From sequence record NC_019500.1: a DNA stretch of 64,000 nt; one strand, given 5' to 3'. Each line of letters opens with the position of its first letter. The first letter of the stretch is position 1. Source of the DNA: Escherichia phage Bp7. Below the pieces are notes generated by a model. It was not told where the DNA came from, made no database searches, and saw only the letters and a program-made list of their open reading frames with translations. The translations under genes and the position numbers were made by a program. Shown here piece after piece: positions 1,459 through 51,714 of the stretch.

Positions 1459-1648
1459 AGTGAATATTGATTTGTTCGATAAAGCCGTCCATAAAGAATT
1501 CCGGTTAATCCAGCGATTTTTTGATATCAATGCGGCTGAGGATTTTAAAGAACGCTTTAAAGAAATCAGATATAAAATACTCAACGACATCGCTACTAAG
1601 GACGAGCTCCTTGAAGTGGCAGACATTTTTAAACGTAACCTGAATTGA
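1445..1648 (+). CDS. hypothetical small protein
   Basis: 67-aa ORF overlapping preceding stop (translational coupling). Confidence 0.4.
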   Translation: MTNFKVNIDLFDKAVHKEFRLIQRFFDINAAEDFKERFKEIRYKILNDIATKDELLEVADIFKRNLN

Positions 1649-1655
1649 GAAAAAT

Positions 1656-3866
1656 ATGATTATTGAAACCGAAAAAGAACAAATCATTGGTAATGGTGCT
1701 AAGTCCACAGGCTTTACTATTCAGGCATCGCCTAAGGTCTTTAAAATTTTGTCATCAGACCTTTATAGTAATAAAGTACGTGCCGTAGTTCGTGAACTAA
1801 TTACCAACATGATTGATGCCCATATTCTAAATGGTAATAAAGAACGTTGGAAAGTACAGGTTCCTGGTAAACTGGACCCTCGCTTTGTATGCCGTGACTT
1901 CGGGCCGGGTATGAGTGATTTCCAAATTCGTGGTGATGAAAACGAAACAGGTTTGTATAACTCTTATTTCGCGTCGTCCAAAACCGCTTCTAACGATTTC
2001 ATCGGCGGCTTTGGCCTTGGTTCAAAATCTCCGTTCAGTTATACCGAAACGTTTAATATTACCTCATGGCACAATGGCGAAGTTCGCGGTTATGTAGCAT
2101 ATATGGATGGTGATGGCCCGCAGATTAAACCTACTTTCGTAGAACCTATGCAGCCAGGTGATAAAACAGGTATCGAAATCACGGTTCCTGTTGATGAAGA
2201 AGATTTCCGTAAGTTTGAAACTGAAGTTCGTTATATCATGCGGCCTTTCATTGGTCTTGGTGATGTAGACGGTGTTGAAGTTGATTATTTCCCTGAATTT
2301 GATGATTACTATCCTGTAACCACTACAAATTATGGCAGCTTCGAACGTTCAGGACTTTATGCAGTTTATGGTGGTATTGTTTATCCATTGGATTCCGCCT
2401 ATAATAAAGGCACGTGGATGCGTACTCGCCATGATGTAGTTTATATTAAATTCCCTATGGGTTCACTGGATATTGCTCCTTCTCGTGAAGTGTTGTCTCT
2501 TGATAAACGTACGATGGAAAATATTTCAACCCGTATCGAAGCACTGGATGCAGTGGTCTTTAAAAATGATACGAAGGAATGGGTTGAATCTGATAATCCA
2601 CGCCATGTTTATCGTGACCTTTCTAACCTTGGTTACAGTGCTCGTGACTATCTTACCAAAAAAGGTGGAACTAGCCTGTTTACTACAGAAAAATTGACAT
2701 ATGAGAAATTATACCAGCGTTATACCCTTCAAAACGACCTTATTAATTTAGGTGTGGTTTACGAAATCATTTCAGACCCACGTTTGAAACGAATTAAGTC
2801 AAGTGGTAATACTTCTTCGGTAGCAGGACTTAGTAATTTATTAGGCATTAATAAGAAAGAAATCCATGTTGTTTATGATGATGAAAAGGGTCGTGTGCCA
2901 CTAGTTCGAGGACTTTGGGCTCTAGCAATGGACAACAGTGCTTCGGCTAAGAAAATTGTTAAAGAGAACAATATTCCTAAATACGGAACTGACCTTATTT
3001 TTGTCGACCCAAATTCAATGTTGCAAATGCAACAACTTGAAAAGGTTAAAGAACTTTTTAAAGGTGACACAATTCATTTTTATAAAGTCTCTGAACTGAA
3101 TAAAATTGTTAAGCCATGGATTCCGGTTACTGTCCGTTCATCAGAACCGCGTCCTAAAACACCGAGTGCTTATCGTTGGTTCATTAAAGACGGGCGCTGG
3201 CAACAAGAGACCATGTATTTGACTGCTGCCGAAGCAGAAGAAATTACAGGTTATGTTCTGTTTGGCAGTCGTTCTGATATTATGGGAATGGATGAAGCTT
3301 ATGGTATCTTTGACATCAATACCACTACCATGTGTCGTATGGCTAATTTGATTGGTGCTACCGAATTCCATATCATTCGCCCTCAGATTGCCAAAAAGAT
3401 TAAAAAGTTAGGCCAATGCGAATGCTTGATGGAAGCTACATTAGAAGCTTATGCTGAAGCCTTAGACGCGGTAGATGTTGATGACTACCTTGGTAGCAAT
3501 ACTCGAGCTCGGTATTACCTTGAAATCATTGCTAAGTTCCCTCAGCTTAATTTCATGACCAAGTATTTCAGTGATAAGCCGGTAACTGAAGCATATACTC
3601 GTCTGAGTAATTTCTATGATATATTCCGTTATATGAATTTCCATGGTTATATCACTGATGATAAGCTTTCCGTTATCAAGAAAATTTGTAACAATACTTT
3701 TTTTAAGTTGACTGATAATGCTTCAAGCAACAATGATAAAATGACTGTACAGTTTGAATCTGATTACCATTTAGTTTCGGACTACATGTATCGTCGTGGA
3801 ACATCCATTACCGAGGCTTCTGTAGCTCAAATTGTTAAATTCATGAAAGCCGTGGAAGCGGCTTAA
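1656..3866 (+). CDS. rIIA: rIIA membrane-associated lysis-inhibition/exclusion protein with N-terminal GHKL-type ATPase fold
   Basis: 736 aa; N-terminal ATPase-like motifs (ELITNMIDAH, DFGPGM, GGFGLGSKS); size and position match T4 rIIA upstream of rIIB. Confidence 0.9.
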   Translation: MIIETEKEQIIGNGAKSTGFTIQASPKVFKILSSDLYSNKVRAVVRELITNMIDAHILNGNKERWKVQVPGKLDPRFVCRDFGPGMSDFQIRGDENETGLYNSYFASSKTASNDFIGGFGLGSKSPFSYTETFNITSWHNGEVRGYVAYMDGDGPQIKPTFVEPMQPGDKTGIEITVPVDEEDFRKFETEVRYIMRPFIGLGDVDGVEVDYFPEFDDYYPVTTTNYGSFERSGLYAVYGGIVYPLDSAYNKGTWMRTRHDVVYIKFPMGSLDIAPSREVLSLDKRTMENISTRIEALDAVVFKNDTKEWVESDNPRHVYRDLSNLGYSARDYLTKKGGTSLFTTEKLTYEKLYQRYTLQNDLINLGVVYEIISDPRLKRIKSSGNTSSVAGLSNLLGINKKEIHVVYDDEKGRVPLVRGLWALAMDNSASAKKIVKENNIPKYGTDLIFVDPNSMLQMQQLEKVKELFKGDTIHFYKVSELNKIVKPWIPVTVRSSEPRPKTPSAYRWFIKDGRWQQETMYLTAAEAEEITGYVLFGSRSDIMGMDEAYGIFDINTTTMCRMANLIGATEFHIIRPQIAKKIKKLGQCECLMEATLEAYAEALDAVDVDDYLGSNTRARYYLEIIAKFPQLNFMTKYFSDKPVTEAYTRLSNFYDIFRYMNFHGYITDDKLSVIKKICNNTFFKLTDNASSNNDKMTVQFESDYHLVSDYMYRRGTSITEASVAQIVKFMKAVEAA

Positions 3867-42804: not shown

Positions 42805-42808
42805 TTAT

Positions 42809-42833
42809 GGGACTCTTCGGAGTCCCATTTTTG
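42809..42833 (+). terminator. rho-independent terminator (GGGACUC-UUCG-GAGUCCC then T-run)
   Basis: perfect 7-bp stem, UUCG loop, TTTTTG. Confidence 0.65.
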
Positions 42834-44220: not shown

Positions 44221-44436
44221 ATGGTTAAGAAATTGATTCAGAAATTATTAGGTACGGAAATGGTCGAAGTGACTTATCGTGTGACTGATGTTTCTCCTCA
44301 TACGGCAGACCATTTAGAACCTTATATCATGACAATTAAAATGGCCAAATATGACGGTGGTTTATCCATTGAAGACCGTCTGCCAGGTTACGGGCATTGG
44401 GCTGATGTCGAAATTATAAGTGTCAAAGATGTCTGA
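44221..44436 (+). CDS. hypothetical small protein (71 aa)
   Basis: tightly packed between neighbours. Confidence 0.4.
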   Translation: MVKKLIQKLLGTEMVEVTYRVTDVSPHTADHLEPYIMTIKMAKYDGGLSIEDRLPGYGHWADVEIISVKDV

Positions 44437-44887
44437 GTTAGAAATCAGAAGTAATTTTCCGTGGCCATCGTGTGCATTAAGTAACTTTGCTAAATGGCCT
44501 TTCGTTATGGATGGTATCCAATTTGGAGGGCTCGAAGGATTCCTCCAAGGGTGTAAGGTGAGAAATCATGAACAACAAAAACGTATATTTGGGATGTCCG
44601 GTCTGGCCGCACAACAAACTGGAAGAGCTTATGCAAGAGCTGCGGACCGTGGGACGCTTTTCTGGCTTGGAATTCCCTTTTCAAGATACTCTACATCATG
44701 GAAAGAGTTGTATACAAATGCATATTTTGAAGCAGCGCTCCAAAACAAAGGATTCCGCGACGCATTACAAGCTACAAAGGGCAAAGTTTTAAAGCATTCG
44801 ATGGCGAGCCACCTTACAGAATGTGATACAATACTAACTGAAAAAGAGTTTATCGACATCCTAAACAAATTGAGAGATTTATTATGA
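44420..44887 (+). CDS. YbiA/NADAR-like (DUF1768-type) protein, putative N-glycosidase / ADP-ribose-processing enzyme
   Basis: N-terminal core SNFAKWPFVMDGIQFGGLEGFLQGCK resembles the YbiA/NADAR signature (SNF..WP...DG......EHYFQ..K); call is from memory of the family. Confidence 0.5.
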   Translation: MSKMSELEIRSNFPWPSCALSNFAKWPFVMDGIQFGGLEGFLQGCKVRNHEQQKRIFGMSGLAAQQTGRAYARAADRGTLFWLGIPFSRYSTSWKELYTNAYFEAALQNKGFRDALQATKGKVLKHSMASHLTECDTILTEKEFIDILNKLRDLL

Positions 44888-45522
44888 AACCAGTTATCTT
44901 AACAGATATCGATGGAGTATGTTTAAGTTGGCAGTCCGGCTTGCCTTATTTCGCACAGAAATATAATTTGCCTTTAGAACATATTTTGAATATGATTCAG
45001 GACGAACGTTTCTTATCTCCTGGTGAGCTGTTTAATTGTGATAATGAATTAGGCGCTCGTTTAATCGAGAAGTACAATCAGTCAGATTTTATTCGTTATC
45101 TGTCTCCTTACATGGACGCATTAAAACATATCAACAAGCTCAAAAAAGACTTCGATTTTGTAGCCGTGACTGCGCTAGGCGACTCAATTGATGCACTGCT
45201 GAATAGACAATTCAATTTGAATGCTTTGTTCCCTGGCGCATTCAAGGAGATTCTGATGTGTGGTCATTCAGAATCAAAAGAAGACCTCTTCATAAGAGCT
45301 AAAAATACGTACGGTAAACGTATTAAGTTTTATGTTGATGATTTGGCTCACCACTGTGATGCTGCATCTAATGTTCTCATGGATATCCAAGTTTATTGGT
45401 TAGCTCGTGGTGAACGTGACTTTAAACCTAATTTAGCCGTAAAGGTTAATTCATGGGACGATATCGCAGCAATCGAATCCCTTCGTAATAATGCCGCAGT
45501 TGAATGGATTGCTCGAGGTTAA
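44884..45522 (+). CDS. HAD-superfamily hydrolase (putative nucleotidase/phosphatase)
   Basis: N-terminal HAD motif I ILTDIDGV; later FYVDDLAHH consistent with HAD motif III/IV; ATGA overlap with the NADAR-like ORF. Confidence 0.55.
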   Translation: MKPVILTDIDGVCLSWQSGLPYFAQKYNLPLEHILNMIQDERFLSPGELFNCDNELGARLIEKYNQSDFIRYLSPYMDALKHINKLKKDFDFVAVTALGDSIDALLNRQFNLNALFPGAFKEILMCGHSESKEDLFIRAKNTYGKRIKFYVDDLAHHCDAASNVLMDIQVYWLARGERDFKPNLAVKVNSWDDIAAIESLRNNAAVEWIARG

Positions 45523-45523
45523 T

Positions 45524-45802
45524 ATGTTTGTAGTTCATACAATTTCAGACTATGGTCCTACCACTACAATGGATTATGGTCATGTAAACCAGTTTATTCG
45601 TCATGTGAATCATGATTACTCATTTGATGTAAATCCGGCTAAAGACCATCCTGTTTGGCGCGAATGCGTCGAACAGGGATTCATTTATGTCCACTTTATG
45701 TCCAAGTTCAAATCTGATGGGCGAATGAGATTTGTGTTCTCTTATCATAAGCGATTAGACTTGCTTTTGGCTGATGTGGCTTATAATAGAATCCATGACT
45801 AA
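45524..45802 (+). CDS. hypothetical protein (92 aa)
   Basis: ATG 45524 in frame with ORF 45491..45802. Confidence 0.4.
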   Translation: MFVVHTISDYGPTTTMDYGHVNQFIRHVNHDYSFDVNPAKDHPVWRECVEQGFIYVHFMSKFKSDGRMRFVFSYHKRLDLLLADVAYNRIHD

Positions 45803-45812
45803 TGAGGTGATT

Positions 45813-47336
45813 ATGATTTTAGATATTTTAAACGAAATTGCTGCTATTGATTCTACTAAAGCTAAAGAAGCCATTATTGCTCGTGAAAAGGACAATGAGC
45901 TTCTGAAACGTGTTTATCGTATGGCTTATACCCGTCGTCTGAACTACGGTATTAAAAAGTGGCCAGAACCTGGATTTACATCTCAATCCTTTGGTATGAT
46001 TACTCTTGAAGACCTTCTTGATTTCGCTGAATTCACATTAGCCACACGTAAGATTACGGGTAATGCGGCTATTGAAGAACTGGCTCAAATCATTGCTGAT
46101 GCTAAGGCCCCGGATGCCGAGGTATTACGTCGTGTAATGATGCGCGACCTTGAATGTGGTGCATCGATTTCTATTGCTAACAAGGTTTGGAAAGGTTTAA
46201 TCCCTGAACAACCGCAGATGTTGGCGAGTTCTTATGATGAAGCTTTGATTAAGAAAAATATTAAATGGCCAGCGTTTGCTCAATTAAAAGCTGATGGCGC
46301 TCGTTGTTTTGCTGAAGTTCGTAACGATGGTGTGACATTCCTTACTCGTGGTGGTAATGAATATCAAGGGCTTAATCTTTTGGCGGCTGAATTAATGGCC
46401 ATGACCGAAGAAGCTCGCCAGCGCCATCCTAATGGTGTTATGATTGACGGTGAATTAGTTTACCATACTCCTAAGGTAGAACCTAAAGCATCTAATGATT
46501 TGTTTAGTATGTTTGATGAGGAACTTCCTGAATTAAGTAAGGCTAAGGAATTCCAAACTGTCGCCGATCGTTCTACGTCAAATGGATTGGCTAATAAGGC
46601 TCTTCAAGGAACTATTACTCCAGCCGAAGCAGCCGGTATGGTATTACAGGCGTGGGATTATGTCCCATTGGATGTCGTATATTCCGAAGGTAAAATTAAA
46701 GGCGATAAGTATGATGTACGCTTTACAGCCTTAGAACTTATGGTTGCTCATAATGTCGTATTGCATGGTGCAACGCGTGTTGAAGCTATCGAAAACCAGT
46801 GGGTTAATAATCTTGAAGAAGCTAAAGTTGTTTATAAGAAATATGTCGACCAGGGCCTGGAAGGCATTATCCTTAAGAACATGGACTCCTACTGGGAAAA
46901 CCGCCGTTCTAAGAATCTTATCAAGTTCAAAGAAGTAATCGATATTGCTTTAGAAGTGGTAGGTTATTATGAACACTCGAAGGACCCTAACAAACTTGGT
47001 GGTGTCGAGTTGGTATCGCGTTGTCGTCGAATTACAAGTGACTGCGGTTCAGGCTTTAAAGATACCACCCATAAGAAAGATAAATCAGGTAAAAAGGTAT
47101 TAATTCCATTGGAAGACCGTCCTGATTTAGACCGTGAACTTCTTATGAAACAAGCTCGTGAAGGTAAGTTGATTGGACGTATTGCTGACTGTGAATGTAA
47201 TGGTTGGGTTCATTCTAAAGGACGTACTGATACTGTAGGTATTTTCCTTCCAATCATTAAAGGTTGGCGTTTCGATAAAACAGAAGCTGATACATTTGAA
47301 GATGTATTCGGTGATTGGTCTCAAACTGGTCTATAA
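45813..47336 (+). CDS. 30: ATP-dependent DNA ligase
   Basis: about 507 aa from ATG 45813 (SD gaggtga); adenylation motif KADGARC, EGIILKN, KFKEVIDI, C-terminal FEDVFGDW; close to T4 gp30. Confidence 0.9.
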   Translation: MILDILNEIAAIDSTKAKEAIIAREKDNELLKRVYRMAYTRRLNYGIKKWPEPGFTSQSFGMITLEDLLDFAEFTLATRKITGNAAIEELAQIIADAKAPDAEVLRRVMMRDLECGASISIANKVWKGLIPEQPQMLASSYDEALIKKNIKWPAFAQLKADGARCFAEVRNDGVTFLTRGGNEYQGLNLLAAELMAMTEEARQRHPNGVMIDGELVYHTPKVEPKASNDLFSMFDEELPELSKAKEFQTVADRSTSNGLANKALQGTITPAEAAGMVLQAWDYVPLDVVYSEGKIKGDKYDVRFTALELMVAHNVVLHGATRVEAIENQWVNNLEEAKVVYKKYVDQGLEGIILKNMDSYWENRRSKNLIKFKEVIDIALEVVGYYEHSKDPNKLGGVELVSRCRRITSDCGSGFKDTTHKKDKSGKKVLIPLEDRPDLDRELLMKQAREGKLIGRIADCECNGWVHSKGRTDTVGIFLPIIKGWRFDKTEADTFEDVFGDWSQTGL

Positions 47337-47574: not shown

Positions 47575-49659
47575 ATGACCGAACAATTAAATGAAGTGTT
47601 TGAGTCCGAAGGCACACTGCCTACAGTAAACTTGAACCCAAAACTTAAAGTACCCCAGATTTGGAAGATTGGTGACGCAGAATCCCAATTAGTGGCGCGT
47701 ATGGTATCCTACGCTTCTGAAGGTGATGCTATTAAACAGGTTAAGATGGGTGATAAATATGCCCACGTTATCCTTATGAGCCTTTCAGCTAAAGGTTCGC
47801 CTGCCGAACTTAAAGGTGGCCTAGGCCCTACTCCCGTAGATGCGATTAATACTATTTTTGATGTGGTTTATGACCAAGTTAAAAAGCTTCGTATGGATGC
47901 CGTGATGTTCCGTTTCCCTACTAAGAAAATGAAAGGTCAAGGCCCTATCGTTCAACGGATTATCCAACGTTTGGTAGCACAGAAAACAGGTGGACGTTTT
48001 AAAGTAGTTCCGGCTATGTACCAATTTACCGGTAAACATACTTATATCCTAGTAGTTCGTAAACAGGCTGATATCGAAGATATCAAAGGTATGCCAGGAA
48101 TTAATGCCGAATTATACACTAAGGTAGATTCTGATGTCGGTGAAGTTTATATTTCTAAAAAAGAAGGCGTGCAGGTTACTAAAGAAACTGCTATTGCCGG
48201 CAGTATTGCTAAAGTTGAAGAACGTCGCACTGATAAAATGGTTATAACCAAGACTAAGATTTCTCGTCGTGCCATTGCAGCAAGTCAATCGTTAGAATCT
48301 TATCGTAATGAAAGTGAACTGTTTAAGAAATATGAAGCAAATGCCGTAGATTTTAATAAACCTGCAACAGCTCCATTAATCCCTGAGGCCCAGGAAATGG
48401 TTACTAATAACAATTCTCCCGCGGCTAAAAATAAGGTTGCTAATATAGTAGCTGAAGGTACTGCTGAAGAATTGCATTATGATTATAAAATGTTTCCTCT
48501 TCACGGTATAGGTGAAATCCAAGAGAAAATTAAAGATAAAATTCTTGCGGCCATCAAAAACGAACCTTTGACATCTGTTAAAGCTCTAGAAAAATATGCC
48601 TCTGCTATTAATACCGTTTTCGAAGAATACAAAGGTGAATGGCTGGCCCGGCATAACAAAACTCGTAAAGGCCAACCTGACGACCTCTGGAATGAATTGA
48701 CCGATGCGAAGTGGAAAGCCGCCAAGACCAAGTTCATTAAAAAACGTGTATATAGTTTTGCCGGTGTAGGTGGCGGTATTATGGTCGATATTACTATTGC
48801 TCGTGAGGGCTCTAAATATACCCCATCACAAAAGCGCGGCATCAGAGAATATTGTGGCTCAGGATATACAGACATAAATAATCTTCTTTTAGGACGCTAT
48901 AACCCTCAGAACTATGAGGTTATGGGCGAAAAAGATATCGAATCTGCAGTTAATAATTTGGATTCTGCTTTTGAAAATGGCGACCGTATACCAGAAGGCA
49001 TCACAGTTTATCGTGCACAGAGTATGACTGCTCCTATATACGAAGCACTAGTTAAAAATAAAGTGTTCTATTTCAGAAATTTTGTATCCACTTCATTGAC
49101 TCCTATCATTTTTGGACGTTTTGGTGTTACACACGCCGGTATCGGTCTTTTAGAACCGGAAGTTCGCGATGAATTGACAGTCGATAAAAATGAAGAAGGA
49201 ATAACTATTAATCCTAATGAAATAAGAGCATATAAAGAAAATCCTGATTATGTTAAAGTTCAAATAGGATGGGCTATTGATGGGGCTCATAAAGTTAATG
49301 TCGTATATCCAGGAAATCTCGGAATAGAAACTGAAGCCGAAGTTATTCTACCGCGTGGATTAATGGTCAAAGTTAATAAAATAACAGATGCTTCTAATAA
49401 TGATGGAACAACATCTAGTAATACAAAACTCATCCAAGCTGAAGTTATGACAACAGATGAGCTTCAAGAATCTGTGGTATATGATGGTGACGTACTAATG
49501 GAAACCGGCGAGTTGGTCGTATATAAAGATGACTTCGATACTTCCGAAAGCCCTGTATCTTTTGATTCATTTGTTAAATCTACACGGTTTGATGTATTGC
49601 CTCTTTTGGCTTCATGCATAGACCTCTATGACATCCCAGAAAAATTCATCCAAGGGTAA
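47575..49659 (+). CDS. alt: Alt-like ADP-ribosyltransferase, paralog 1
   Basis: 694 aa (T4 Alt 682 aa); C-terminal R-S-E ART motifs (KRGIREY, FVSTSL, ETEAEVILPRG); N-terminal region shared with paralog 2. Confidence 0.8.
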   Translation: MTEQLNEVFESEGTLPTVNLNPKLKVPQIWKIGDAESQLVARMVSYASEGDAIKQVKMGDKYAHVILMSLSAKGSPAELKGGLGPTPVDAINTIFDVVYDQVKKLRMDAVMFRFPTKKMKGQGPIVQRIIQRLVAQKTGGRFKVVPAMYQFTGKHTYILVVRKQADIEDIKGMPGINAELYTKVDSDVGEVYISKKEGVQVTKETAIAGSIAKVEERRTDKMVITKTKISRRAIAASQSLESYRNESELFKKYEANAVDFNKPATAPLIPEAQEMVTNNNSPAAKNKVANIVAEGTAEELHYDYKMFPLHGIGEIQEKIKDKILAAIKNEPLTSVKALEKYASAINTVFEEYKGEWLARHNKTRKGQPDDLWNELTDAKWKAAKTKFIKKRVYSFAGVGGGIMVDITIAREGSKYTPSQKRGIREYCGSGYTDINNLLLGRYNPQNYEVMGEKDIESAVNNLDSAFENGDRIPEGITVYRAQSMTAPIYEALVKNKVFYFRNFVSTSLTPIIFGRFGVTHAGIGLLEPEVRDELTVDKNEEGITINPNEIRAYKENPDYVKVQIGWAIDGAHKVNVVYPGNLGIETEAEVILPRGLMVKVNKITDASNNDGTTSSNTKLIQAEVMTTDELQESVVYDGDVLMETGELVVYKDDFDTSESPVSFDSFVKSTRFDVLPLLASCIDLYDIPEKFIQG

Positions 49660-51714
49660 ATGATGGAAAATTTAAACGAAGTTTTTGATAGCGATTCCGC
49701 TAAAAACTATCCAGTAATAAATCTTAAACCAGGTTCCGGTATCCCACAGATTTTCTCTATTAAAGCACCGGGTAATGATAACCTGGTTGCTCGTATGGTA
49801 TCTTATGCGTCTCAAGGAGACGCTATTAAAATGGTTAAGCCGGGCGACAAATATGTCCACGTTATTCTAATGAGTTTGTCAAGCAAGGGTGCTCCGGCTG
49901 AACTCAAAGGTGGTCTTGGTTCTGACCCACTCGGTACGCTGAATACCATTTTTGATACTGTATACGAACAAGTAAACAAACTTAAAATGGATGCGGTTTT
50001 ATTCCGTTTCCCTACCAAGAAAATGAAAGGTAAGGGCCCTACTGTTCAGCGTGTATTAGCTCGTTTGGCTATGGCTCGTACTGGTGGTAAGTTTAAAGTT
50101 GTTGATGCCATGTACCAATTCACTGGAAAACATACCTATGTTCTTTTAGTACGTCGTGGCACTAATATTGAAGATATCAAGGGTATGCCTGAAATTGATG
50201 CCGAACTTTATACTAAGGTTGAGTCCAAAGTTGGCGAAGTTTATGTTTCTAAGGAAACCGGCCAGTCCGTAAGTAAGGCCGAAGCTGTCTCGGCAAGTAT
50301 AGCTAAGGTTGAAGAGAAACGTACTGATAAGGCCGTCATTACCAAGACTAAGATTTCTCGTCGTGCTATTGCTATGTCGCAATCCTTAGAATCGTCACGA
50401 TTTGAAACTCCTATGTTTAAGAAATTTGATTCTAATGCTGCTGAATTGAATAAACCGGCTACGGCTCCTTTAATGTCAGAAGCAAATGAAATAAAGGTTA
50501 TTTCTAATTCTTTCTTGGCTTTAGAAAATACCATTAGTGCTAATACTGGTGGTATGTCGTTTAAAGACAACCTTCTTATTCCAGAAGATAAAATGGAAGA
50601 AATTAATACCGACATAAAAATGAGAGCTTTTGAGAAATTACATGGATTAAATGTGACTTCAGTAAAAGCCCTAGAAAATTATGCTTCAGTGGTTGATGAC
50701 GTCATCGAAGAATATAAAGGTCCTTGGCTTCAAAAGCTAATGGCTCAACATTCACACCTAGGTTATCACGAAGCAGTCGAGTTGGCTGAAAATTCTTGGA
50801 ATGCTATAAAGACCAAAATTATTCAACGTGAGCTGCGTGTTTACGCTCTTACCGCCGGTTGGCAATTGCATTCTATTATAGAAAATAAAGACGCGTCTCG
50901 TTATACTCCTGCCCAGAAACGTGGTATTCGTGAATATGTTGGCTCCGGTTACGAAGATATGAATAATGTTCTTTTAGGTCTCCATGACCCGAATGTAAGA
51001 AGCAGTATTCTGACTAATGAAGACATAGAAAAAGCTATCAATAACTTAGATTCTGCTTTTGAAAATGGCGAACGTCTACCACCAGGTATTACTCTTTATC
51101 GTTCCCAACGAATGATTCCTGATATTTACTTGGCTATGATTAGCAATAAAGTATTCTATTTCAGAAACTTTGTTTCAACTGCGATATATCCGAATATTTT
51201 TGGTACATGGATGACTGATTCTGGTGTTGGTCTTTTGCCTGACGAAAAACGTCGTGATGTTGCATTAGACAAATCGGATGAAGGTTTAGTATATTCGAAT
51301 AAAGATACTTTAGTAGGTATTGGTTGGGCCTTTACCGGTACAGATAAGGTAAATGTCGTTTTACCTGGTGGAGACTTGGCTCCTTCTAACGAAATGGAAG
51401 TAATTCTTCCTAGGGGTTTGATGGTCAAAATCAATAAAATTACAGATGCTTCATACAATAACGGAACTACTCGTTCTAACAATAAGTTCGTTCAAGCCGA
51501 AGTAATGACTGCAGACGAACTTAATGAAGCCGTGGTGTACGATGGTGATGCTCTGATGGAAACAGGCGAACTAGTTGTCTATAAAGAGGGTAATGAGCTT
51601 TCTTTTGATTCTTTTGTTTCTAATGAGAAGAAAAAGAAATCAGACAGAGGTCTTGGCTTGTTAGCTTCTTGTATAGATATCGACGCTCTCCAGTATAAAT
51701 TTGTACAAGGGTAG
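49660..51714 (+). CDS. Alt-like ADP-ribosyltransferase, paralog 2
   Basis: 684 aa; N-terminal region closely similar to paralog 1 (ARMVSYAS.GDAIK.VK.GDKY.HVILMSLS.KG.PAELKGGLG); ART motifs KRGIREY, FVSTAI, NEMEVILPRG; starts 1 nt after paralog 1 stop. Confidence 0.8.
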   Translation: MMENLNEVFDSDSAKNYPVINLKPGSGIPQIFSIKAPGNDNLVARMVSYASQGDAIKMVKPGDKYVHVILMSLSSKGAPAELKGGLGSDPLGTLNTIFDTVYEQVNKLKMDAVLFRFPTKKMKGKGPTVQRVLARLAMARTGGKFKVVDAMYQFTGKHTYVLLVRRGTNIEDIKGMPEIDAELYTKVESKVGEVYVSKETGQSVSKAEAVSASIAKVEEKRTDKAVITKTKISRRAIAMSQSLESSRFETPMFKKFDSNAAELNKPATAPLMSEANEIKVISNSFLALENTISANTGGMSFKDNLLIPEDKMEEINTDIKMRAFEKLHGLNVTSVKALENYASVVDDVIEEYKGPWLQKLMAQHSHLGYHEAVELAENSWNAIKTKIIQRELRVYALTAGWQLHSIIENKDASRYTPAQKRGIREYVGSGYEDMNNVLLGLHDPNVRSSILTNEDIEKAINNLDSAFENGERLPPGITLYRSQRMIPDIYLAMISNKVFYFRNFVSTAIYPNIFGTWMTDSGVGLLPDEKRRDVALDKSDEGLVYSNKDTLVGIGWAFTGTDKVNVVLPGGDLAPSNEMEVILPRGLMVKINKITDASYNNGTTRSNNKFVQAEVMTADELNEAVVYDGDALMETGELVVYKEGNELSFDSFVSNEKKKKSDRGLGLLASCIDIDALQYKFVQG

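Follow-up and report, generated by a model that had tools for sequence, protein, structure and literature searches.

Two overlapping genes of Escherichia phage Bp7 very probably serve separate ends: the open reading frame (ORF) at positions 44429..44887 is adfN, a gene directed against the DarTG1 defence, and the one at 44884..45522 encodes gp30.2, a HAD phosphatase that works outside that mechanism. The window analysed here is a stretch of 64,000 nucleotides from sequence record NC_019500.1, and it is ~98% identical to IME281 (Dhakavirus, Tevenvirinae). For the NADAR-like product of the first gene, the initial annotation had offered three functions, namely the reversal of host DarT-type DNA ADP-ribosylation, nucleotide or cofactor salvage, and the editing of ADP-ribosylation products of the phage itself, of which experiments on the T4 orthologue have demonstrated the first (PMC11257639, PMC11125620). 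The anti-DarT role of the gp30.3 family is correct, and already known rather than new: between 2022 and 2025, published work first predicted the NADAR nature of AdfN/gp30.3 and later established that it acts as a DNA ADP-ribosylglycohydrolase by which T-even phages counter DarTG1.

The T4 protein gp30.3 was renamed AdfN (anti-DarT factor NADAR) by Johannesman et al. (bioRxiv 2024/Nat Commun 2025; PMC11257639, PMC11825919). [quoted passage not shown] The in vitro activity of AdfN is specific for guanosine and not for thymidine, and the residue carried by the last beta-strand is a His in phage NADARs, a Glu in YbiA and an Asp in DarG1 (Toxins 2024, PMC11125620). In the absence of infection, T4 AdfN fails to neutralise DarT1, and its rescue of non-T-even phages is weak (PMC11257639, PMC11125620). 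Demonstrations of DNA ADP-ribose removal and DarTG1 resistance concern the T4 and T2 orthologues only. An independent confirmation of the role of AdfN has been provided by the genome-wide HIDEN-SEQ transposon screen of T4, from which we use the DarTG1 sheet and the essentiality table. In the former, insertions in 30.3 show a log2FC of -7.25, and those in 30.4 are mildly depleted (log2FC -1.79, adjusted p 0.014), probably by a polar effect on adfN.

The locus follows the gene order 30.4-30.3-30.2-30.1-30-alt, which is common to T4 and to the Bp7 window, and comprises the following features:

44221..44436, + strand, gp30.4 homologue of 71 aa (PHROG 2042, E 2.5e-35)
44429..44887, + strand, adfN, the gp30.3 orthologue, 152 aa (Pfam PF08010 Phage_30_3, E 3.9e-64)
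44884..45522, + strand, gp30.2 orthologue, HAD phosphatase of 212 aa (PHROG 420, E 1.5e-70)
45524..45802, + strand, gp30.1 homologue (Pfam DUF3045, E 5.9e-16)
45813..47336, inside ORF 45774..47336, + strand, gp30 ATP-dependent DNA ligase (Pfam DNA_ligase_A_M, E 4.2e-23)
47575..49659, + strand, Alt-type ADP-ribosyltransferase copy 1, 694 aa (Pfam ADPrib_exo_Tox, E 4.7e-35)
49660..51714, + strand, Alt-type ADP-ribosyltransferase copy 2, 684 aa (56% identical to copy 1 over its whole length)

The ORF list and the translations bear out the two plus-strand frames described in the initial annotation as NADAR and HAD, together with the peptides SNFAKWPFVMDGIQFGGLEGFLQGCK and ILTDIDGV on which their recognition was based, and the Phage_30_3 and PHROG 420 matches indicate that neither of them is a chance ORF. 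The 4-nt overlap reported between them can be read in the sequence as the ATGA at 44884..44887. One correction concerns the NADAR start, which had been placed at GTG 44420 and which homology to T4 gp30.3 and the cloning primers in PMC11257639 move to ATG 44429. Upstream, the last 8 nt of the gp30.4 homologue overlap the start of adfN, and T4 30.4 and 30.3 have the same position and the same 8-nt overlap. Downstream, the gp30.1 homologue is 43% identical to T4 gp30.1 in an alignment that begins with MFVVHTI, and its start is likely ATG 45524 (MFVVHTI...) rather than the upstream ATG 45491. The true start of the ligase is likely MILDILNEI at 45813; in the IME281 record, which is 98% identical, the ligase CDS has 1524 nt. 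The ligase and the two Alt-type ADP-ribosyltransferases named as neighbours are confirmed by the ORFs, by Pfam and by the identity between the copies (the Pfam ADPrib_exo_Tox match was obtained for copy 1, and copy 2 was assigned by its identity to copy 1), and the distance of about 2 kb also holds, the first alt starting 2.05 kb past the end of the HAD gene. Both copies are full-length in the Bp7 window, whereas T4 keeps only remnants of the duplication (alt.-1, alt.-2). Since promoter-like sites between 42000 and 48000 are no commoner than in shuffled sequence (12, the shuffled mean being 16), we make no claim about transcription units; the sole standout of the promoter and terminator scan of this region is a terminator-like hairpin at 42807..42828.

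The product of the first gene is a NADAR-fold orthologue of T4 gp30.3 with an intact C-terminus. It shares 86% identity with the T4 protein (152 aa, with the N-terminus MSELEIRSNF...), has equal length, and is colinear with it to the last residue, with 22 substitutions in between. The Phage_30_3 profile is matched with 215.1 bits (cutoff 36) over positions 2-138 of 138. The NADAR models themselves behave otherwise: the HMMER check that had been proposed against Pfam DUF1768/NADAR (PF08719) gave nothing at E<=1, a PADLOC scan of the ORF returned no match, and the NCBIfam scan gave only a faint TIGR02464 match (E 0.093, 13 bits against a cutoff of 73.7), so that direct Pfam, NCBIfam and PADLOC scans, in which no NADAR model was matched, were set aside as a basis for the assignment. 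Because the Bp7 protein falls below the PF08719 threshold, the case for its NADAR membership is built on the fold, the motif and homology of a transitive kind. In this regard, 19 of the 80 family members do match PF08719 (best E 1.5e-7), and the family profile finds YbiA with E 0.011 in an alignment spanning the catalytic motif, the single-sequence search of PDB sequences being weak (E 1.2). The AF2 model (pLDDT 94.6, pTM 0.89) was compared with the PDB by Foldseek, where a probability of at least 0.97 was reached only by 2B3W, 8BAU and 8BAT, all others having E>3; the comparison with YbiA that had been proposed thus came out positive, with 2B3W as the best structural match (E 1.3e-4). The initial annotation had made its family assignment depend on the catalytic residues, and E36 and K43 are present; together with Q40 and H123 they are invariant in an alignment of 80 homologues. 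In both sequence and profile searches E36/Q40/K43 align with E48/Q52/K55 of YbiA, H123 directly follows the modelled strand 120-122, and the C-terminal helix 138-151 is intact and modelled at pLDDT >90. The YbiA/NADAR assignment, which had been given as provisional, is upheld by the PF08719 matches of the relatives, the family profile, the AlphaFold fold and the catalytic residues.

Set beside known systems, the Bp7 protein is closest to T4 AdfN, with which it shares the flanking genes, the overlaps with 30.4 and 30.2, the residues E36, K43 and His123, the C-terminal helix and a single-domain architecture without the N-terminal extension of DarG1; the two differ by the 22 substitutions mentioned and belong to Tequatrovirus and Dhakavirus, respectively. 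The NADARs of DarG1 (Geobacter/Trichlorobacter lovleyi, 8BAT) and of P. nicotianae (8BAU, with ADP-ribose) have the same fold (Foldseek probability 0.97-1.0) at a sequence identity of only 15-17%. According to the literature, both remove ADP-ribose from guanine in DNA, a reaction shared with AdfN. DarG1, however, carries an Asp in the last strand and an N-terminal extension, whereas AdfN has a His and lacks the extension, and the gene of DarG1 stands next to that of the toxin. Uninfected cells are protected by DarG1 but not by T4 AdfN. YbiA of E. coli (2B3W; PF08719 NADAR/DUF1768), with a TM score of 0.67, has the motif SNFA-W-P...E-x-F-x-Q-x-x-K in common with AdfN but only 19% identity, and its last strand bears a Glu instead of the His.

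By analogy with the T4 protein, we infer that Bp7 AdfN is a guanine-specific DNA ADP-ribosylglycohydrolase that would behave as its orthologue does. The DarT1 toxin of the host would ADP-ribosylate guanine bases of the replicating phage DNA, and AdfN would hydrolyse the N-glycosidic bond of guanine N2-ADP-ribose, so that unmodified DNA would be restored, replication would go on and the DarTG1 defence would fail. AdfN may be regarded as an orphan enzyme similar to type IV antitoxins, which would act on the DNA with no binding of the toxin. Bp7, a Dhakavirus, should resist DarTG1, since its adfN is intact and predicted to be functional.

The second gene encodes a HAD-superfamily phosphatase with a helical C1 cap. 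Its product is 74% identical to residues 1-191 of T4 gp30.2 and represents a short allele, without the C-terminal tail of ~85 aa that the T4 protein has. The catalytic motifs are D8-x-D10-G-V (motif I), T96 (II), K132 (III) and D152-D153 (IV). No exception to D8, D10, G11, K132, D152 or D153 occurs among 83 homologues, in which T96 reaches a conservation of 90% or more, and D8, D10 and K132 are invariant even in 93 distant relatives. A second Asp in motif I is typical of HAD phosphatases. In the AF2 model (pLDDT 93.4) the core is Rossmann-like, and we find helices in residues 16-86, between strand 1 and the strand 91-97, which form the C1 cap inserted between motifs I and II. Foldseek returned 156 matches at E<=1e-3, the best 50 of the 156 being all members of the HAD superfamily, including the NT5C-type enzymes (PF06941) cdN (2JAO) and mdN (4MUM). 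Motifs, model and structural matches all agree with the HAD hydrolase of the initial annotation.

The relationship of gp30.2 to the NT5C 5'(3')-deoxyribonucleotidases appears to be distant and indirect. The protein itself scores below the gathering threshold of Pfam NT5C (13.4 against 24.8 bits, E 0.074), and against cdN 2JAO, among PDB sequences, we obtained the weak values of E 0.25 with the single sequence and E 0.15 with the family profile. On the other hand, 37 of 92 distant relatives match the NT5C model (best E 4.2e-10), and by hhalign the set of distant relatives aligns with an NT5C protein of Vibrio phage Va3 with a probability of 91.5% (E 8.5e-7), whereas the profile of the close family aligns with it in motif I alone. 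Larger proteins with a gp30.2-like domain (P0295, P0337, P0285, P0242) yielded no informative fusion partner in a Pfam scan, and a literature search on gp30.2 found no biochemical data. One source labels a relative of gp30.2 as 'FMN phosphatase YigB'. The enzyme is predicted to be a Mg-dependent aspartyl-phosphate phosphatase whose substrate would most likely be a small phosphomonoester, possibly a nucleotide.

Small molecules also enter a different explanation of the pair, according to which the NADAR acts mainly on riboflavin-pathway N-glycosides or on soluble immune signals derived from ADP-ribose, with gp30.2 as its partner phosphatase. YbiA has been assigned the physiological role of a riboflavin-intermediate N-glycosidase, as have NADARs of its type, and both the faint TIGR02464 match and the YigB label would fit such a function, which we nonetheless consider unlikely. 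The TIGR02464 score is far under its cutoff, the Glu of the YbiA type is replaced by His in the phage subfamily, and the in vivo phenotype and the in vitro substrate demonstrated for the T4 orthologue concern ADP-ribosylated guanine in DNA. In addition, 30.3 and 30.2 are both non-essential on E. coli K-12 in the HIDEN-SEQ essentiality table, and neither is among the genes that its authors list as depleted in minimal medium.

A closer partnership can be conceived as well, in which AdfN and gp30.2 make up a module of two enzymes and the HAD is the other phage factor, one that processes, for example, the ADP-ribose set free, phosphorylated products of its breakdown or a by-product of nucleotide type. 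A second T-even factor for full AdfN activity was left open by the AdfN authors (PMC11257639), and either an extra phage factor or a preference of AdfN for modified DNA may be involved; moreover, the rescue experiments were done in RB69, which carries its own 30.2. The gene arrangement is also suggestive, as every close Tevenvirinae locus keeps the ATGA overlap and so does one locus with a 44%-identical AdfN, the two genes lie 1 nt apart in an Acinetobacter phage of the Twarogvirinae, and the adjacency is maintained across at least two subfamilies of the Straboviridae. In Va3 (schizoT4), adfN is overlapped by a bona fide NT5C-type HAD (Pfam E 3e-12), the protein to which the wider gp30.2 family was related above. 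This gene was rejected as a gp30.2 orthologue, because motif I is all that could be aligned, whether by BLASTP of the pair or with the profile of the close family, and it is a related HAD for which orthology is not demonstrable; a gp30.2 homologue sits elsewhere in a related Vibrio phage genome of 248 kb.

Against the two-enzyme module, insertions in T4 30.2 are not depleted in the DarTG1 sheet (log2FC -0.12, p 0.61, 71 sites) while those in 30.3 vanish, and purified AdfN de-ADP-ribosylates DNA in vitro by itself (PMC11257639, PMC11125620). A gp30.2-type gene is found within ~4 kb of only 20 out of 86 AdfN-family loci and is missing from the other 66, and the genes flanking the adfN-family member are unrelated ones in phages of Aeromonas, Caulobacter, Agrobacterium and Brevundimonas. 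Overlaps of 4 nt are, furthermore, routine in the Bp7 genome, the same one occurring at 6 of the 80 same-strand junctions of the window, and they are nothing unusual in the way T4 packs its genes. In view of the transposon data examined for T4 and of the lack of co-occurrence beyond the T4-like core, gp30.2 was rejected as the missing factor, and a module of this kind is very improbable. The functional coupling of HAD and NADAR implied in the initial annotation finds no support in the DarTG1 sheet or in the 20 of 86 loci, and adfN and 30.2 most likely lie side by side without forming a functional module. Their co-transcription and translational coupling would be merely that of many adjacent early genes of T4.

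From the position of the pair 2 kb upstream of the alt genes one might also suppose that the NADAR reverses or edits the ADP-ribosylation carried out by Alt, ModA or ModB of the phage itself, an editing at which the initial annotation had hinted. The NADAR and alt genes do share an early region, and an earlier paper remarked on the co-expression of the NADAR with the ADP-ribosyltransferases of T4-like phages (PMC9503650). Nevertheless, the proximity is inherited T4 synteny, alt lies on the opposite strand in the Acinetobacter phage, most AdfN-family loci have no Alt nearby, and in the DarTG1 sheet T4 alt insertions show no interaction (log2FC -0.01), all of which leaves such self-editing hardly credible.

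Beyond AdfN there is gp30.2, an NT5C-like phosphatase that is conserved but non-essential and is found in more than 1400 genomes of T4-like phages. The adjacency of adfN and HAD genes could reflect a shared role outside DarTG1, and gp30.2 might join AdfN, or run parallel to it, in some conflict that centres on nucleotides or ADP-ribose and does not involve the plasmid-borne DarTG1 tested to date, although we give this little credence. Examples would be the clearing of ADP-ribose-derived or modified-nucleotide products, or the countering of another nucleotide-based defence. Such a joint role, if true, would explain why an NT5C-type HAD stands beside a NADAR in Tevenvirinae, in Twarogvirinae and, in a different form, in Schizotequatrovirus. 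The present analysis adds little to science, and its practical value lies in annotation: in the closest RefSeq genome the adfN ORF is unannotated, and the labels of its neighbours are shifted one gene out of register.

The window comes from a T4-like coliphage, and it contains both ORFs, with their quoted peptides, that the initial annotation had reported. Among the matches listed, IME281 (Enterobacteria phage vB_EcoM_IME281; Straboviridae, Tevenvirinae, Dhakavirus) is 98% identical over 4.1 kb around adfN, and the other best coliphage records reach 96-98% over the same 4.1 kb. The + strand gene order (cd, 31, rIII, 30.9 ... 30.4, 30.3, 30.2, 30.1, 30 (DNA ligase), alt) is that of T4, where it is read on the opposite strand. 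The first ORF had been opened at a GTG (44420), which is replaced here by the ATG at 44429 (MSELEIRSNF...), following T4 gp30.3 and the published cloning primers; adfN then shares 8 nt with the upstream 30.4 homologue, exactly as in T4. The 4-nt overlap between the two ORFs stands, as ATGA at 44884..44887. The features are as follows:

44429..44887, + strand, adfN (gp30.3 orthologue), by PF08010 and identity to T4 gp30.3
44884..45522, + strand, gp30.2 orthologue, HAD phosphatase, by identity to T4 gp30.2, HAD motifs and model
47575..49659 and 49660..51714, + strand, complete Alt-type ADP-ribosyltransferase genes in tandem, with 56% identity and zero bases between the two

The first-ORF protein falls in Pfam PF08010 (Phage_30_3; E 3.9e-64) and aligns to T4 gp30.3 without gaps over all 152 residues, with 86% identity. 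The NADAR profile match sought for it was negative for the protein itself, as PF08719 (NADAR/DUF1768) gave no match at E<=1 and phmmer reached YbiA only at E 1.2. Despite this, the AdfN/gp30.3 family belongs to the NADAR superfamily, because 19 of 80 homologues match PF08719 directly (best E 1.5e-7) and the family profile reaches YbiA (E 0.011) across the catalytic motif. The comparison with YbiA proposed by the initial annotation gave a match: the only three meaningful PDB matches of the AlphaFold2 model (mean pLDDT 94.6) are the three solved NADARs, namely E. coli YbiA (2B3W; E 1.3e-4, TM 0.67), a Phytophthora NADAR with ADP-ribose (8BAU) and a Geobacter DarG1-type NADAR (8BAT). The catalytic residues, whose absence would have counted against a NADAR, are present, Glu36 and Lys43 being invariant across the family and aligned to YbiA Glu48 and Lys55. 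His123 is also invariant, and this last position distinguishes NADAR kinds, with His in phage NADARs, Glu in the YbiA type and Asp in the DarG1 type. A C-terminal helix (residues 138-151) is intact in the model of the window allele.

On DNA, purified T4 gp30.3 hydrolyses ADP-ribose linked to guanosine but leaves that linked to thymidine in place (2024 study, PMC11125620). Johannesman et al. mapped DarTG1 resistance of T-even phages to gene 30.3, renamed adfN (PMC11257639; Nat Commun 2025 16:1598): without it, T4 and T2 became about four logs more sensitive; RB69, which has an allele of its own cut short by 15 residues, was rescued by adfN in trans; rescue was lost with E36A and with K43A; and AdfN did not bind DarT1 and took ADP-ribose off DNA in vitro (PMC11257639). 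In an independent T4 transposon screen, 30.3 was non-essential on E. coli K-12 (bioRxiv 10.1101/2025.11.20.689424) and its insertions were lost on DarTG1 (log2FC -7.25, adjusted p 0; Extended Data Table 6, sheet Data S6). The mechanism is thus established for the T4 orthologue and, since the window allele retains every feature known to matter for AdfN, it very probably acts as a functional anti-DarTG1 DNA ADP-ribosylglycohydrolase. The suggestion that a phage NADAR could reverse DarT-type DNA ADP-ribosylation was therefore correct, as shown experimentally for the 86%-identical T4 protein; this function is already published, so the anti-DarT reading holds nothing new.

In the published transposon screen, T4 30.4 insertions showed a mild but significant depletion on DarTG1 (log2FC -1.79, adjusted p 0.014). 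This is likely due to polarity on adfN (30.4 overlaps the adfN start by 8 nt), and a role of 30.4 itself (window homologue 44221..44436) on DarTG1 is less likely. Inside adfN, the frame 44568..44792 (+) is the counterpart of the annotated out-of-frame T4 ORF 30.3', with no sign of separate selection (61% identity to the T4 version vs 86% in the main frame). The closest RefSeq genome, NC_055740.1 (IME281), leaves the adfN ORF (L088, the IME281 locus, 1634..2082, equivalent to window 44429..44887) in an unannotated gap between its '30.4' CDS and the following CDS; its gp30.x notes are one gene out, the HAD gene being called gp30.3 and the DUF3045 gene gp30.2.

The two Alt-type genes placed about 2 kb downstream are indeed there, full-length and beginning at 2.05 kb; T4 retains only fragments of such a duplication (alt.-1, alt.-2). 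The closeness of adfN to alt is inherited T4 synteny. That AdfN edits the phage's own ADP-ribosylation products found no support: Alt is described as a modifier of host proteins, e.g. the RNA polymerase alpha subunit, whereas the T4 NADAR activities reported in PMC11125620 and PMC11257639 have ADP-ribosylated guanine of nucleic acid as their target, and T4 alt insertions have no DarTG1 phenotype (10.1101/2025.11.20.689424).

The second ORF is 74% identical to T4 gp30.2 residues 1-191 and lacks the C-terminal tail of about 85 residues of the T4 protein; the short form is common in other genera (homologues of roughly 200-220 aa). This distinct 212-aa allele has copies at least 99% identical in 41 phage records, and the nearest group, merely 60-80% identical, in most cases has a C-terminal low-complexity extension of 60-90 aa, like T4 30.2 (T4 locus L001, 6475..7311). 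The HAD motifs, namely D8-x-D10-G (I), T96 (II), K132 (III) and D152-D153 (IV), show little or no variation among 83 homologues; the second Asp of motif I is typical of phosphatases, not dehalogenases. The AlphaFold model (pLDDT 93.4) shows a Rossmann-like core and a helical C1 cap, and the best 50 of its 156 Foldseek matches at E<=1e-3 are all HAD-superfamily enzymes, cytosolic and mitochondrial 5'(3')-deoxyribonucleotidases among them. Direct sequence links to NT5C did not reach threshold (E 0.074 for Pfam, 0.15 for cdN); in an exhaustive profile search (1184 cluster representatives at E<=1e-3), 37 of 92 distant relatives matched Pfam NT5C (best E 4e-10). Motifs, model and structural and family matches therefore make the fold and catalytic class secure, bearing out the HAD-type assignment, and calling it an 'NT5C-like nucleotidase' is a reasonable guess at the substrate, though unproven. 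The term 'gp30.2' was not found in the literature searched.

The coupling of adfN to the HAD gene, as proposed initially, was not borne out. All the close Tevenvirinae loci examined share the 4-nt overlap, as does one further locus with an AdfN of merely 44% identity, and an Acinetobacter Twarogvirinae phage has the two genes 1 nt apart. The HAD gene that overlaps adfN in Vibrio phage Va3 is a different one, a bona fide NT5C member with a relationship to the gp30.2 family in its broader sense; moreover, the AdfN authors leave room for another T-even factor needed for full activity. However, both this genome and the T4 region commonly have overlaps of 4 nt and 1 nt, purified AdfN is active alone in vitro, and T4 30.2 insertions (71 sites) were unaffected by DarTG1 in the transposon screen (log2FC -0.12, p 0.61). 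A gp30.2-type gene lies within about 4 kb in just 20 of 86 AdfN-family loci, all 20 with T4-like synteny, the remainder having varied downstream genes (ligase, helicases, small unknowns). A functional module is accordingly very improbable, and adfN and gp30.2 are concluded to be neighbours within a conserved early-gene block. Directly after the 30.9-like ORF lies a strong terminator-like hairpin (42807..42828, +; a 9-bp stem with 5 G-C pairs, and a T-run), possibly the upstream boundary of the 30.8-to-30 transcription block.

In Va3 (L006, 6007..6958) the overlapping gene encodes a 166-aa protein of the 5'(3')-deoxyribonucleotidase family with motif I DMDNV, and the related Vibrio phage phi-Grn1 carries a gp30.2-type gene elsewhere in its genome. 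Beyond the T4-like core, genes of the AdfN family often adjoin DNA-repair genes (also at comparison loci L005 and L007), as in Agrobacterium phage Atu_ph04 (L004, 6004..8134), where a helicase of the DinG/Rad3 type (Helicase_C_2 in Pfam, E 1.5e-15) is followed by endonuclease V; CcrColossus has an RNA ligase and a helicase beside its AdfN-family gene. Such loci echo the reported setting of E. coli ybiA in an operon with dinG.
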